Source: an uncultured Actinomycetes bacterium (lineage in GTDB: Bacteria > Actinomycetota > UBA4738 > JBBDTT01). Taken from it: a stretch of 64,000 nt of DNA. Both the position numbers and the translations under genes were made by a program. This document shows positions 23,203 to 47,933 of the stretch, piece by piece. Below the pieces are notes generated by a model. It worked only from the letters and a program-made list of their open reading frames with translations, made no database searches and was not told the DNA's origin. The DNA lies in NCBI GenBank assembly GCA_963742735.1, contig CAVUMN010000004.1, positions 1,152,001 to 1,216,000 on the forward strand. The letters are read 5' to 3'. How positions within the stretch are numbered: position 1 is the stretch's first letter; each line of letters starts with the position of its first letter.

Positions 23203-24044
23203 CACAGGTCGAAGAAGAGGCCCTGGGTCCACGGCCACACCCAGTTCTGCGCCGGGCCGCGGAAGAACGAACCGATCATGACCAGGATCGCCCAGAACAT
23301 GATGAACATCGTGAACAGCGTGATGGCCACCTTGCGATCGCCGGGCTTGGTGGAGGGGTTGCGGTCGAAGTAGGGGACCACGATCAGGCCGATGATCGCG
23401 ACCGTCGGCATCATCACGCCCGCGATCGTCGGGTGGAAGTACCGCAGGAGCTCCTGCAGGCCCATGAAGTACCACGGCGCCTTCGACGGGTTCGGCGTCA
23501 GGTTCGGGTTCGCCAGCTCGAGCAGCGGCGCGTTCACGAACGTCGAGAACACGATCAGGAACGCGCTCACGACCAGCAGCGCCACGAACTCCTCGGCCAG
23601 CAGGTGCGGCCACACGTTCACCCGGTCGCCCTGTTCGCGCTCGACCCGCTGGATGCCCTCGGGGGGGACCAGGGCCAGCAGCCGGTGCTTCTCGTTCTGG
23701 CCGGGCTTGGCGGCGGTGGGCGGCTTGCCGGTCGGGGGCGGCGCGACCCGGACCGCGGCGGCCGGCGCGGCGAACACCGCTCCGGTTGCGGCGGCGGCGG
23801 CGGCGGCCTCGGGGGCCGCGGCGGCGGCGGCCGGCTGGGCGGCGCCTCCATTCCCGGCGGGGGCCGCGGCGGCGGCGGGCTTGGGGGCCCGCTCGGGCTC
23901 GCCGTGCTCCTTGTGGTAGGCGGAGACGGCCGCGCGGCGCGCCCGCCCCTCGGCGACGCGCTTGTCGGAGCCCTTCTCGAGCTGCTCCTTCAGGACGCGG
24001 TCGAAGATCTCCTGGTCCATCGGAGTGTCGGCAGGGCCGGCCAT
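23202..24044 (-). CDS. Cytochrome b C-terminal subunit (subunit IV/PetD-like) with N-terminal helical domain and Ala/Pro linker
   Basis: VWPHLL, ANPNLTPNPSKAPWYF (PEWY-equivalent), PYFDRNP and three TMs. Confidence 0.9.
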   Translation of the reverse strand: MAGPADTPMDQEIFDRVLKEQLEKGSDKRVAEGRARRAAVSAYHKEHGEPERAPKPAAAAAPAGNGGAAQPAAAAAAPEAAAAAAATGAVFAAPAAAVRVAPPPTGKPPTAAKPGQNEKHRLLALVPPEGIQRVEREQGDRVNVWPHLLAEEFVALLVVSAFLIVFSTFVNAPLLELANPNLTPNPSKAPWYFMGLQELLRYFHPTIAGVMMPTVAIIGLIVVPYFDRNPSTKPGDRKVAITLFTMFIMFWAILVMIGSFFRGPAQNWVWPWTQGLFFDL

Positions 24045-24063
24045 CGTGGTCTCACTTCCCCCT

Positions 24064-24852
24064 TTACAGCGGTCCGGAGATCCCGCCGTCCTTGCGGATC
24101 CTCCAGAAGTGGACGGCCAGGAAGATGGTCAGGAAGAACGGCAGCGCCAGCACGTGCAGGACGTAGAACCGCAGCAGGGTGTCGGGCCCGACGGCGGTTC
24201 CCGCGAACAGCAGGAACTGGACCTGTTTCGCGATCAGCGGGCTGTACCCGGCGATGCCCTGCCCCACGGTGACCGCCCAGATCGCGAGCTGGTCCCAGGG
24301 GAGCAGGTAGCCGGTGTAGGAGAGCAGCAGCGTGAGCAGCAGCAGGATCACCCCGACCACCCAGTTGAACTCCCGCGGCGGCTTGTACGCGCCGGTGTAG
24401 AACACCCGGGCCATGTGCAGGAACACCGAGATGACCATGAGGTGCGCGCCCCATCGATGGATGTTGCGCACCAGGTCGCCGAAGATCACGTTCGTCTTGA
24501 TGTTCTCCATGTCGGCGTAGGCCAGCGCGCCGCCGATGTCGGCCGCCGGCCGGTAGAAGAACATCAGGTAGATGCCGGTGACGGTCAGCAGGACGAACAG
24601 GAAGAACGACAGGCCGCCCAGGCAGAACGTGTACGTCAGCTTGAGCCCGTGCCGTTTGATCTTGACCGGATGCAGGTGGTACAGGACGTTGTTCATCGTG
24701 GCCAGCGCCCGGTCGCGCGAGGTGTCCTTGTAGCCCTTCCGGAACATGGAACCCGGCCGGAAGATCGACTTCCAGACCTCGCTCTCCCGGATGTAGTCGC
24801 CGACCTCGGCCGGGGTGGGGAGGAAGGACGGAAGGCGGGGCTTCAGGTTCAC
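24064..24852 (-). CDS. Cytochrome b N-terminal subunit (cytochrome b6-like, 4 TM)
   Basis: [55 protein letters not shown]...HFWRIRK and GISGPL end. Confidence 0.93.
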
Positions 24853-24856
24853 CGGC

Positions 24857-25252
24857 TCACTCCTCGGCCGCCTGGCCGGCGGGGACCGCGGCCATCTGCC
24901 GGGCGCCCTCGGCGCCCTCGGGGATCCGGGCGTAGTACAGGCAGTCGCTGGGGCATCGCTCCACGCACACGCTGCACCGGGTGCAGGCGTTGTCGTCGAC
25001 CACGAAGATCGCGTACGCCTGGTTGACGTCGGCCCCGACCGCGCCGTCCTCGGTCCCCTCGACGATCCCCGGGTCCAGCATGTAGATGCAGTTCCAGGGG
25101 CAGACGTCCTCGCAGGCCCGGCAGAGGATGCACGGCTCGGGGTCGAGCATCAGGTGCTTGGGGGACTTCACGCCCTCCTTGAGCCATCCGACGTCGACGG
25201 TCTGGAGCTCGTAGTCCTCCCGGATGTCGACCTCGGTCTTGGTGAACGCCAT
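24857..25252 (-). CDS. 2x[4Fe-4S] ferredoxin
   Basis: [12 protein letters not shown] and [12 protein letters not shown]; acidic; no signal peptide. Confidence 0.92.
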
Positions 25253-25267
25253 ACGTCGATGCCTTCC

Positions 25268-45070: not shown

Positions 45071-45567
45071 TGGAGAAGGTGCCCATGCCCCAGCCGGTCA
45101 AGTTCCTGCTCAACTGGGGGCGCCGCTATTCGCTGTGGGTGATGAACTTCGGCCTCGCGTGCTGCGCGATCGAGTTCATCGCCGCGTCCACCTCCAAGCA
45201 CGACTTCATCCGCCTCGGCGTGATCCCGTTCGCCCACGGGCCTCGCCAGGCGGACCTGCTGATCGTGGCGGGCACGCTCACCGACAAGATGGCGCCCGCC
45301 CTCAAGCGCGTGTACGAGCAGATCCCCGACCCGAAGTACGTGATCTCGTTCGGGTCCTGTTCGAACTGCGGTGGGCCGTACTGGGACTCGTACTCGGTGA
45401 CGAAGGGCGTCGATCAGTTCGTGCCGATCGACGTGTACGTCCCCGGGTGCCCGCCCCGCCCCGAGGCCCTGCTTCAGGGCATCGTGAAGCTCCAGGAGAA
45501 GATCGCAGGGGAAGACATCCGGGAGAAGTGGAGTGGCAAGCTCACCCAGCCCGCTTCGAGTCACTGA
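45070..45567 (+). CDS. nuoB: Complex I-like subunit B (second copy)
   Basis: [17 protein letters not shown] and [10 protein letters not shown]. Confidence 0.95.
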
Positions 45568-46045
45568 AGTCGCCGAGCGCCTGAAGGCGCAGTTCGGCGA
45601 CGACATCTCGGAGCTCGAGGACTCGTTCGGCCACGTCGTCGCGACGGTGGCCGCCTCGCGCTACCGCGAGCTCGCCGTCCTGGTCCGCGACGACCAGGGC
45701 ATCGGCTGTGACTTCTTCGACTTCACCACCGCCGTCGACCGCAAGGAGGAGGGGATCGACGTCGTCACCCACGTGACGAACAGCCGGACGTCGGTCGGCG
45801 TCCGGATCAAGGTCCGCCTGCCCGCCGAGAACCCCTCGATCGCCACCCTCTCCGACGTGTGGCCGGGGGCGGACTGGCACGAGCGAGAGACCTGCGAGCT
45901 CTTCGGCGTGGACTTCGAGGGTCATCCGCACCTGGTGAAGCTCGTGCTCCCCGAGCAGTTCGAGGGCCACCCCCTGCTGAAGTCCTTCGAGCTGATGAGC
46001 CGCGTCGCCAAGCCCTGGCCGGGGGATACGGAGCTTCCGGATTGA
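45533..46045 (+). CDS. nuoC: Complex I-like subunit C (second copy)
   Basis: [13 protein letters not shown] and [15 protein letters not shown]; start uncertain. Confidence 0.92.
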
Positions 46046-47043
46046 TCGCCCAGTCGGCCATCGACAACCTGATCGGTGGGTGGTGGCTCCCCCTCATCCT
46101 GAAGGTGGCGGCCGTCCTGTTCGTGTTCCTGACCGCGCCGCTGGGCGTGGGCTACATGGAGCACAAGGTCCTGGCCCACATGCAGGCCCGCCTGGGGCCC
46201 ATGGAGGCCGGCCGGTTCCACGGCTGGGCGCAGCTCATCGCCGACGGGGTGAAGTTCATCCAGAAGGAGGACGTCATCCCGCGGGCGGCCGACCGATGGA
46301 CGTTCACGCTGGCGCCGGCCGTGGTCCTGGTCCCGACGATCATGATCTTCATCGTCCTGCCGTTCGGGCAGGACTTCTACGCGGTGAACTTCGATCTGGG
46401 TCTGTTCTTCGCCCTGGCCATGTCGTCGGTCTCCGTGATCGGGATCATGATGGCCGGCTGGTCCAGCGCCAATAAGTTCTCGCTGATCGGCGCGCTGCGG
46501 GCCGCGGCCCAGCTCATCGCGTACGAGCTCCCGATGATCCTCGCCGCGGTGAGCATCGCGATGCTCGCCGGGACGCTCTCGCTGGTCGGCATCTCGGAGG
46601 CCCAGAGCTCCTACTGGTACGTGATCGTCCAGCCCGTGGGCTTCGTCATCTTCCTGATGGCCGCGGTCGCGGAGATGTCCCGGCCGCCCTTCGACATGCC
46701 GATCGCCGACTCCGAGATCATCTTCGGCGCCTACACCGAGTACACCGGCATGAAGTTCGCGTTCCTCCTTCTCACCGAGTACGCGGGGATCGTCGTGTGG
46801 TCGGGGATCGCCAGCGTGCTGTTCCTGGGGGGCTACCAGCCGCTTCCGGGCCTGGACTTCATCCCCGGGTGGATGTGGATGTTCGGCAAGATCAACGGCC
46901 TGGCGTTCTTCATCGTGTGGCTGCGGGCGACGTACCCCCGGCTGCGCGAGGACCAGCTCCAGCGGTTCTCCTGGATCGGCCTCATCCCGCTCGCCCTGGC
47001 CAACATCCTGGTCACGGCCCTCGTGAAGGTGCTGGTGAAGTAG
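46042..47043 (+). CDS. nuoH: Complex I-like subunit H (second copy)
   Basis: [29 protein letters not shown] and [13 protein letters not shown] overlap with nuoC. Confidence 0.95.
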
Positions 47044-47045
47044 CG

Positions 47046-47933
47046 ATGCAGACCGACCAGACGCGCGGCGCCGGCGGCAACGGCCACGGGACGCCCGAGC
47101 AGCCCCTCAAGCCGCTCATCCCCGGCACCGGCCTGATCAAGGGCCTGCTGGTCACGCTGCGGACCATGCTCAAGCGCTCGGTCACCCAGCAGTACCCCCG
47201 CGTCAAGCCCGAGCTCCCGCCGCGGACCCGCGGCGTCATCGCCCTGAAGCAGGAGAACTGCACGGTCTGCTACAAGTGCTCGCGCGAGTGCCCCGACTGG
47301 TGCATCTACATCGACGCCCACAAGGAGACGCACGAGCCGGCCGGCGGCGGCCGCGGGCGGTCCGCCAAGGTCCTCGACCGCTTCGACATCGACTTCTCGC
47401 TGTGCATGTACTGCGGCATCTGCATCGAGGTCTGCCCGTTCGACGCGCTGTTCTGGACCCCGGAGTTCGAGTACTCCGAGTACCGCATCGAGGACCTGCT
47501 CCACGAGAAGGAGAAGCTGCAGGACTGGACCTACACCGTGTTGCCGCCTCCCGACCTCGAGCTGGGGGCGGAGGTGGAGGCAGAGGCAGAGAAGGAAACG
47601 GAGGCACCGGCGGCCCAACCCGCCCCGCCTGCGGCCGCCGTTCCAGTTGCCGCCGCTCCGGCGACCACGGAAGCTGCCGCACCCGCCGCGCCAGCCACGG
47701 CGGAGGCTCCGGCCGCTGAGGCTGAGCCTGCCGCTCCTCCCGAGGCTCCGGCGGCCCCTGCGGCGCCCGCAGCACCGGCGGCTCCCCGTCCCCACGTTGA
47801 ACCTGACCAGGAGACCTACGAGCGCGTCCTGGCGGACCTGCTCGCCAAGGGGACCGACAAGCGGGTGGCGGAGGGCAAGGCCAAGTCGGCGGCGATCCAG
47901 GCCGCCCGCAAGAAGGCGGAGGGCGGCGAGTGA
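47046..47933 (+). CDS. nuoI: Complex I-like subunit I (second copy) with Ala/Pro linker and C-terminal helical domain
   Basis: [12 protein letters not shown] and [12 protein letters not shown]; extension ends [27 protein letters not shown]. Confidence 0.95.

Follow-up and report, generated by a model that had tools for sequence, protein, structure and literature searches.

The DNA analysed here (the window) is a stretch of 64,000 nucleotides from contig CAVUMN010000004.1 of an uncultured Actinomycetes bacterium, with a G+C content of 70%. Two of its genes, belonging to two different respiratory complexes, encode proteins that carry the same small domain of about 40 residues, hereafter called the module. 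In subunit IV of a cytochrome b6-type complex, the module stands at the N-terminus; in the NuoI-like protein of a second nuo operon (NuoI2), it stands at the C-terminus. The two genes and their parts are as follows, with the evidence for each given in brackets (HMM, hidden Markov model):

23202..24044, minus strand: subunit IV gene, encoding an N-terminal module, a linker and a three-helix petD-like core (PF00032, 40.1 bits)
23910..24017, minus strand: module copy A, subunit IV residues 10-45 (HMM E 2.8e-30)
23691..23888, minus strand: Ala/Pro/Gly linker A, subunit IV residues 53-118 (composition)
47046..47933, plus strand: NuoI2 gene, encoding a two-cluster Fe-S core, a linker and a C-terminal module (NuoI models and gene order)
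47574..47804, plus strand: Ala/Pro/Glu linker B, NuoI2 residues 177-253 (composition)
47805..47930, plus strand: module copy B, NuoI2 residues 254-295, up to the stop codon (HMM E 1.9e-29 and AlphaFold2 model)

Subunit IV, a protein of 280 residues, begins MAGPADTPM-DQEIFDRVLKEQLEKGSDKRVAEGRARRAAVSAYHK, with copy A read from nt 24017 to 23910, and the last 42 residues of the 295-residue NuoI2 make up copy B. Aligned without gaps and counted by hand, the copies are identical at 21 of 36 positions, including the stretch KG[ST]DKRVAEG[RK]A, and both are copies of one module. When the 3.08-Mb genome was searched in six frames with the NuoI2 copy, only this copy itself and that of subunit IV were returned, the latter with a BLAST E value of 2.7e-8 and 57% identity over 37 residues. 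An HMM built from both copies, a check proposed in the initial annotation of the window, found the same two places in the whole genome; the next best open frame scored E 0.23, and no third copy was found. The initial annotation had stated that one small domain is tethered to two different respiratory complexes by an Ala/Pro-rich linker of 60-80 residues in each, and that the canonical NuoI at 36023 is without it. All of this is borne out: the linker measures 66 residues in subunit IV (47% Ala, 18% Pro, 9% Gly) and 77 residues in NuoI2 (45% Ala, 25% Pro, 14% Glu), and the canonical NuoI is a protein of 152 residues with no extension.

Thirteen copies from relatives of the window genome give the consensus DQETFDRVLAExLAKGTDRRVAEGRARxAAVxAARKKA. 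The mean column identity is 71% among these 13 copies, which come from three kinds of carrier protein, and 64% among 99 copies; the module is thus strongly conserved, while the linkers are hypervariable and do not align. An AlphaFold2 model made from the 99-row alignment is a helical hairpin (mean predicted local distance difference test score, pLDDT, 89.2) with helices at positions 8-20 and 25-45 and the turn K-G-T-D, so that the module is predicted to fold as a tight antiparallel pair of helices joined by four residues. With mean net charges of -2.6 and +4.6, helix 1 is acidic and helix 2 basic and alanine-rich. The turn is K-G-(T/S)-D across the copies, and the core of helix 2, R-V-A-E-G-x-A, is nearly invariant. 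G22, A28 and A32 are the same in all 99 copies, and D7, L15, L19, R26, V27, E29, G30 (present in 95 of the 99), A35, A36, A39 and R41 are nearly so. Read on a helical wheel, A28, A32, A35 and A39 would face helix 1; since R26, E29, G30 and R41 are conserved and point away from this alanine stripe, a second conserved surface is suggested. The alignment designated A3 contains 17 rows from the unpublished genomes G006, G014, G027, G030, G031 and G039, and the AlphaFold2 model, the conservation table, the tree and the class and phylum searches rest partly on those rows.

The initial annotation held the domain to be unnamed, and the searches agree. Against Pfam-A 2025, with E values up to 10 admitted, no meaningful family match to the module was obtained with any of the 13 copies; the best E values, 0.023-0.087, are scattered over five unrelated families, each matched by at most two of the 13. 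The same 13 copies gave no match to E3_binding (PF02817) or to the SAP, HeH and Rho_N helix-extension-helix models. When whole carrier proteins were compared with NCBIfam 20 and Pfam, only Fer4/NuoI or petD models matched, none of them on the module, and the precomputed Pfam domains of 93 homologues cover the cores only. A sequence profile search of the PDB with the module reached E 0.38 at best, and a Foldseek search of the PDB with the AlphaFold2 model gave no match at E <= 0.001, the best (E 1.5) being generic helix pairs. The carriers go by database names such as 'NADH-quinone oxidoreductase subunit I', 'hypothetical protein' and 'uncharacterized membrane protein'. In the literature searched, supplementary files aside, no description of such a module was found, and the passages of PMC5600118 on Actinobacteria and ferredoxin do not mention an extension of subunit IV. 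We rate the module as a new domain family in a new arrangement, which no named family fits.

The initial annotation knew two carriers; we observe at least four kinds. The first is the b6-type subunit IV, with the module at the N-terminus, and the second is the NuoI of the second nuo operon, the one without an N-module, with one to three copies at the C-terminus; where a long context was available (three NuoI carriers), gene sizes and order gave A-B-C-H-I-J-K-L-M-N operons. The third is a small bitopic membrane protein with the module at its C-terminus, and the fourth, seen in other lineages, comprises membrane-anchored cupredoxins, which bear it at either end. In every case the module occupies the free, extreme end of a low-complexity Ala/Pro(/Glu) leash of 60-250 residues on a membrane-bound protein. 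Tandem copies also occur, two to four per protein (four in one public protein), and we read them as raising the valency of the tip.

Within the order of the window genome, subunit IV carries the module in 36 of 41 genomes (31 of 35 when the six unpublished ones are set aside), the bitopic protein in 32 (27 of 35) and NuoI2 in 23 (21 of 35). At least two kinds of carrier are present in 37 of the 41. NuoI2 and subunit IV carry it together in 21 genomes (19 of 35), and this pairing, which the initial annotation would have expected of relatives, is found again in four distant families; all three carriers are present in 17 genomes (15 of 35).

The bitopic protein opens with a signal-like segment and a short outer stretch that contains a G-G-W motif; a single membrane helix, a basic stretch, the leash and the module follow. 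No Pfam family, redox domain or meaningful NCBIfam model was found in it (a single weak, low-complexity GltJ match lies far below its cut-off), and in a protein atlas it fell only into 'hypothetical protein' clusters of Actinomycetota. The window genome itself has a syntenic protein of this type (C4 ~316005-316816, minus strand) with a long, acidic tail rich in Glu, Ala and Pro. As this tail ends without a module, the window lineage appears to have lost the module from its bitopic carrier. Several public proteins without a Pfam domain that are probably homologues of the bitopic protein (P0207, P0208, P0226 and P0238) are labelled 'pyruvate dehydrogenase E2 component' or 'cytoskeletal protein RodZ'; these labels are misleading, being evidently caused by the Ala/Pro linker.

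Among the cupredoxin carriers, all four proteins tested match Cupredoxin_1 (34.1-42.8 bits against a cut-off of 27) and three of the four exceed 21.2 bits for Copper-bind. Their parts come in two orders: cupredoxin, membrane helix, leash and two modules in f66, and module, leash, membrane helix and cupredoxin in f9. Metagenomic fusions of the module to soluble enzyme-like or sigma-factor-like parts (P0152, P0093, P0079 and P0151), among them proteins resembling a thiamine diphosphate (ThDP) enzyme or aminotransferase and an extracytoplasmic function (ECF) sigma factor, were not counted as carriers. At their junctions a helix of the host protein looks like helix 1, so that chimeric assembly or a misread frame is the likelier origin. 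One more match, in a regulator-like open frame of G027 (E 0.0018), was treated as a false positive.

The module was found, with one to five matches per genome, in 40 of the 41 genomes of the order, the exception being 69% complete. In the window's class, which comprises a single order, it is present in 285 of 294 genomes and in all 109 of high quality. An evenly sampled set of 251 Actinomycetota genomes contained it in 59: 19 of 19 in the window's own class, 17 of 17 in f9, 10 of 11 in f15, and some in f53, f52, f66, f11, f14 and f18. A subunit IV core of the same split type was detected in 109 genomes of this sample; all 59 genomes with the module are among them, leaving 50 with the subunit type and no module, and none of the other 142 genomes has it. 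(The tallies out of 294 and 251 include further unpublished genomes.) Distant NuoI2 proteins end in two copies (f9 and f53), three (f15) or one (f11), and distant subunit IV proteins begin with the module in f9, f15, f53, f66 and f11. A variant in which helix 1 lacks four residues, IDQExYDRLIAEGKSERIARAKAKAA, occurs on subunit IV in f14, f15, f18 and f53 (L216-L220) and on NuoI2 in f15 and f53 (L203 and L206). Because the profile detects this variant only partly and weakly, 59 of 251 is a lower bound.

A profile search of a public collection of 1.84 billion representative proteins returned only 244 at E <= 0.001. Among the best 150 of these, there were eight NuoI proteins, a few of subunit IV, two cupredoxins with two copies each and many fragments. 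The public records nearest the window copies come from uncultured Actinomycetota, and more distant proteins with the module from Nitriliruptor sp., Nitriliruptoraceae and Egibacteraceae.

To follow the movement of the module between carriers, we used a tree of 101 copies, which is weakly resolved on its 48 columns. The subunit IV copies lie on one side of a single branch (one change; Shimodaira-Hasegawa-like approximate likelihood ratio test, SH-aLRT, 91). The NuoI2 and bitopic copies are intermixed, with 8 and 9 changes respectively, two of each forced by the starred branches. The NuoI2 copy of G040 sits inside the f5 bitopic clade (SH-aLRT 96). Four other f5 genomes possess a NuoI2 that is 72-77% identical, in short open frames (167-201 residues in three of them). 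In G040, 20 of 151 bases separate the NuoI2 copy from the bitopic one, yet their proteins differ by a single residue. With this many base differences, recent gene conversion was rejected as the source of near-identical copies within one genome; the transfer is old, and it has been followed by strong purifying selection. Given the mixing in the tree and the pattern in G040 and its f5 relatives, NuoI2 has lost and regained its C-terminal module, and copies on different carriers are functionally equivalent. The proposal in the initial annotation that the module is movable is thus supported by the tree, in which C-terminal copies have been exchanged between carriers.

The operons that host the two window copies are listed below. 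Gene calls were made with a crude script based on GC3; in the second nuo operon, A, B, C, H, I and J are named from NCBIfam, and K, L, M and N from size and order only.

21850..25624, minus strand: b6-type operon, with genes for a 118-residue protein, ferredoxin, cytochrome b6, subunit IV, Rieske protein and cytochrome c (Pfam/NCBIfam and gene order)
25268-25624, minus strand: protein of no known family, 118 residues
24857-25252, minus strand: 2x[4Fe-4S] ferredoxin, 131 residues
24064-24852, minus strand: four-helix cytochrome b6
22501-23238, minus strand: Rieske protein
21850-22500, minus strand: c-type cytochrome
27860-42182, plus strand: first nuo operon, 14 genes
36023..36481, plus strand: canonical NuoI of the first nuo operon, 152 residues, with neither linker nor module
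44702..53719, plus strand: second nuo operon, A2-B2-C2-H2-I2-J2-K2-L2-M2-N2

Subunit IV belongs to the Cytochrom_B_C/petD family: residues 178-261 match PF00032 above the gathering score (20.7 bits), and the gene lies between those of the four-helix cytochrome b6 and the Rieske protein. It is not the cyanobacterial equivalog, as TIGR01156 gives only 22.3 bits against a cut-off of 127. Its cytochrome b6 partner scores 204.8 bits with the cytochrome b6 model. With the NCBIfam model ExtP, named for the b-type cytochrome of a selenite/tellurite reduction operon, the same protein reaches 287.6 bits, just below the cut-off of 290, and subunit IV itself weakly matches ExtQ (46.7 bits against 150). 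The gene order of the b6-type operon recurs in 17 distant loci, in two of which no adjacent ferredoxin match was found. NuoI2 has two 4Fe-4S motifs of the Fer4 families and is encoded between nuoH and nuoJ (NuoH at 333 bits, above its cut-off). It matches NuoI models at E 1e-27 to 1e-30, below the curated cut-offs (TIGR01971, 95.8 bits against 113.05; NF004540, E 1.2e-30), and is 35% identical to the canonical NuoI. Being below these cut-offs and yet flanked by NuoH and NuoJ, NuoI2 is a divergent NuoI paralogue. The operon that encodes it is without D, E, F and G; some 660 kb from it, on the same contig (C4:534927-536021), lies the gene of a NuoD paralogue that shares 39% identity with NuoD of the first operon.

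NuoI is part of the cytoplasmic arm of complex I, and subunit IV has its N-terminus on the negative side (n-side) of the membrane. In the bitopic and cupredoxin carriers, a positive stretch follows the membrane helix, and the cupredoxin must be outside; their modules would hence be cytoplasmic too, which would place the module on the cytoplasmic side in all carriers. The design, a small conserved fold that ends a long hypervariable Ala/Pro leash and is often present in tandem, is that of a docking module. We propose that this leashed module docks onto a common site and so co-localises respiratory components around the b6-type complex, a reading to which we would give a probability of roughly 45%. 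The leash would let the module reach one common binding site, which may lie on another copy of the module, on a soluble protein or on the side of the b6-type complex that faces the cytoplasm, and the carriers would be kept close together with the b6-type complex as their hub. That complex would also be the original context, as the module is restricted to genomes with this type of subunit IV and the subunit IV copies are of single origin; the other proteins would have joined by acquiring the tip. Co-localisation is preferred over the alternatives because a tip in the cytoplasm can be of use to a periplasmic cupredoxin only by determining its position.

Several observations weigh against co-localisation around the b6-type complex. 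The role of the b6-type complex as a hub rests on co-distribution among related genomes; as these are not independent of one another, what they show is a pattern that does not amount to a test. Individual carriers can do without the module: NuoI2 lacks it in four of the five f5 genomes tested, and so does the bitopic protein of the window genome. Subunit IV of f16 has no extension, and in f38, f24, f32 and f42 (L212-L215 and L221) subunit IV begins with another motif, MTEIPEHLLKR, with a second copy RIPAHLLERSK, on a low-complexity tail; in five genomes searched this type of motif was not found outside subunit IV, and it may be an analogous tip. Counted by clusters, the most frequent carrier is the bitopic protein (66 of the best 150 of the 244 public representatives), which has no assigned function; its gene precedes Zincin_2-tilS-hpt-ftsH-folE and is not beside respiratory genes. 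Only three of the four kinds of carrier can therefore be called respiratory. Finally, the assignment of carriers relied on short motifs and visual inspection, and 19 rows were set by hand.

A more specific form of the proposal is that the module is a sticker, which binds its own copies or one site on the b6-type complex and thereby tethers the N-module-less complex I, the b6-type complex III, the cupredoxin and the bitopic protein to one another. We put this forward tentatively, as somewhat doubtful. A complex prediction with two copies of the module (alignment A3) gave a score of 0.01 and a mark of 0.42; made without controls, it counts neither way on self-association. If the sticker were real, the resulting supercomplex would be held by flexible cytoplasmic leashes with multivalent tips and not by rigid intramembrane contacts, and members could be gained or lost by simple swapping of modules.

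The best of the other explanations is that the basic helix 2 captures a soluble redox partner, either the acidic ferredoxin of the operon or another soluble donor, which would feed the N-module-less Nuo2 and the n-side of the b6-type complex. Such an arrangement would resemble that of NdhS, which helps ferredoxin to bind to cyanobacterial NDH-1. The charges are suitable, the ferredoxin having an isoelectric point (pI) of 4.25 with 24 Asp and Glu against 10 Lys and Arg, and helix 2 about +4.6; the b6-type operon has the ferredoxin gene at its head both in the window and in 15 of the 17 distant loci; and Nuo2 is without NuoE, NuoF and NuoG. The initial annotation had named this ferredoxin as a candidate partner, which the distribution does not support: in f16 the ferredoxin gene is present beside a subunit IV that has no extension (2 of 2 loci), and in f53, where the module is present, no ferredoxin match adjoins the operon (2 of 2 loci). 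The f5 NuoI2 proteins that have no module speak against capture as well. Moreover, the redox domain of the cupredoxin carriers is across the membrane from the module, and the bitopic carrier has no redox domain, so that neither would gain anything from it. Capture of ferredoxin is accordingly disfavoured, and we regard it as unlikely.

Less probable again is an anionic ligand other than protein, such as the head groups of acidic phospholipids (cardiolipin), polyphosphate or nucleic acid, bound by an arginine-rich face around the near-constant glycine so as to anchor the tails to a surface or polymer. The conserved residues R26, E29, G30, R31/K31, R33/K33 and R41 and the strongly basic helix 2 would be in keeping with this. 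Nevertheless, the other helix is acidic, the net charge of the module is close to neutral, an exposed hydrophobic face is not evident, and no likeness to DNA-binding helix-extension-helix or SAP modules was found in Pfam; carriers that are already in or at the membrane would also have no obvious use for a leash of 60-250 residues leading back to it.

We consider it more improbable still that the hairpin is a handle for quality control, recognised by an assembly factor or a membrane AAA+ protease such as FtsH, or a cap that shields the tail, and that it controls the turnover of respiratory subunits. The position of the module at the extreme terminus, on the cytoplasmic side, would suit such a role. 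In L016 the bitopic gene stands four genes upstream of ftsH; the other context loci resemble it in gene order and sizes, and the syntenic gene of G000 is likewise followed by those four genes. The order tilS-hpt-ftsH-folE is weak evidence, however, being a general actinobacterial gene string, and a handle fails to explain why these carriers share the tip, why copies stand in tandem and why its range follows that of subunit IV. Lastly, chance likeness or a recent functionless local duplication, which the alanine content of both proteins and the high G+C might have invited, is refuted by the E value within the genome, by the synonymous divergence of the G040 copies with near-identical protein sequence, by hundreds of conserved copies in the class and in several families of the phylum, and by the confident fold.

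Among known systems, the closest to co-localisation by a leashed tip is the peripheral subunit-binding domain (PSBD, E3_binding) in the E2 chains of 2-oxo acid dehydrogenases, a two-helix module of 35-45 residues that is borne on flexible Ala/Pro-rich linkers and is purely a docking site on a large complex. Unlike the PSBD, the module described here does not match E3_binding, is a tight hairpin, and sits on membrane respiratory proteins at chain termini, often in tandem. Cytochrome cy of the Rhodobacter bc1-cbb3 supercomplexes is a membrane-anchored electron carrier on a flexible tether. There too a leash keeps a respiratory component near its partners, and the cupredoxin carriers are themselves membrane-anchored carriers; but the tether of cytochrome cy is periplasmic and bears a redox domain, whereas the leash here would be cytoplasmic and bears a non-redox module common to several complexes. 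To our knowledge, every known bacterial supercomplex depends either on rigid contacts between subunits or on cytochromes tethered in the periplasm. RnfC/RsxC has Ala/Lys-rich repeats at the C-terminus of an Fe-S subunit of a membrane redox complex. The initial annotation saw a loose likeness to them in the tail of the module, which would consist in an Ala/Lys/Arg-rich helical C-terminus; no RnfC above the cut-off was found in this genome. Lineage-specific parts also hold the respiratory enzymes of Actinobacteria together, as in the mycobacterial complex III2-complex IV2 (CIII2CIV2) supercomplex or the malate:quinone oxidoreductase bound to it (PMC11874196). Those contacts are rigid interfaces of single subunits, and no module that recurs on complex I-like, complex III-like and carrier proteins is described in that abstract.

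How respiratory complexes hold together, and whether it matters, is a long-running question in bioenergetics. Here, evolution has moved a single 40-residue module among complex I-like, b6-type and cupredoxin proteins, which now share it. The module would give a simple, testable handle on localisation, on the pattern of supercomplexes and on electron flux. It also singles out as functionally connected two assemblies of Actinomycetota, the little-studied Nuo2 without an N-module and the b6-type complex linked to ferredoxin, and flags a bitopic membrane protein as a possible unrecognised member of the respiratory chain. For the databases, it adds an unnamed domain family of 244 representative clusters among 1.84 billion.

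Some neighbouring genes should also be noted. Two proteins of no family frame the b6-type operon, one of 118 residues (listed above) and one of 261 (21095-21880, minus strand); weak matches to the former were found in 2, and to the latter in 8, of the 17 distant loci, and both may be further subunits. The first nuo operon is flanked by a gene of the MenJ-like geranylgeranyl reductase family (26612-27859, plus strand) and one for a long-chain polyprenyl diphosphate synthase (42205-43212, plus strand), and genes for the quinone tail thus lie between the two respiratory clusters.

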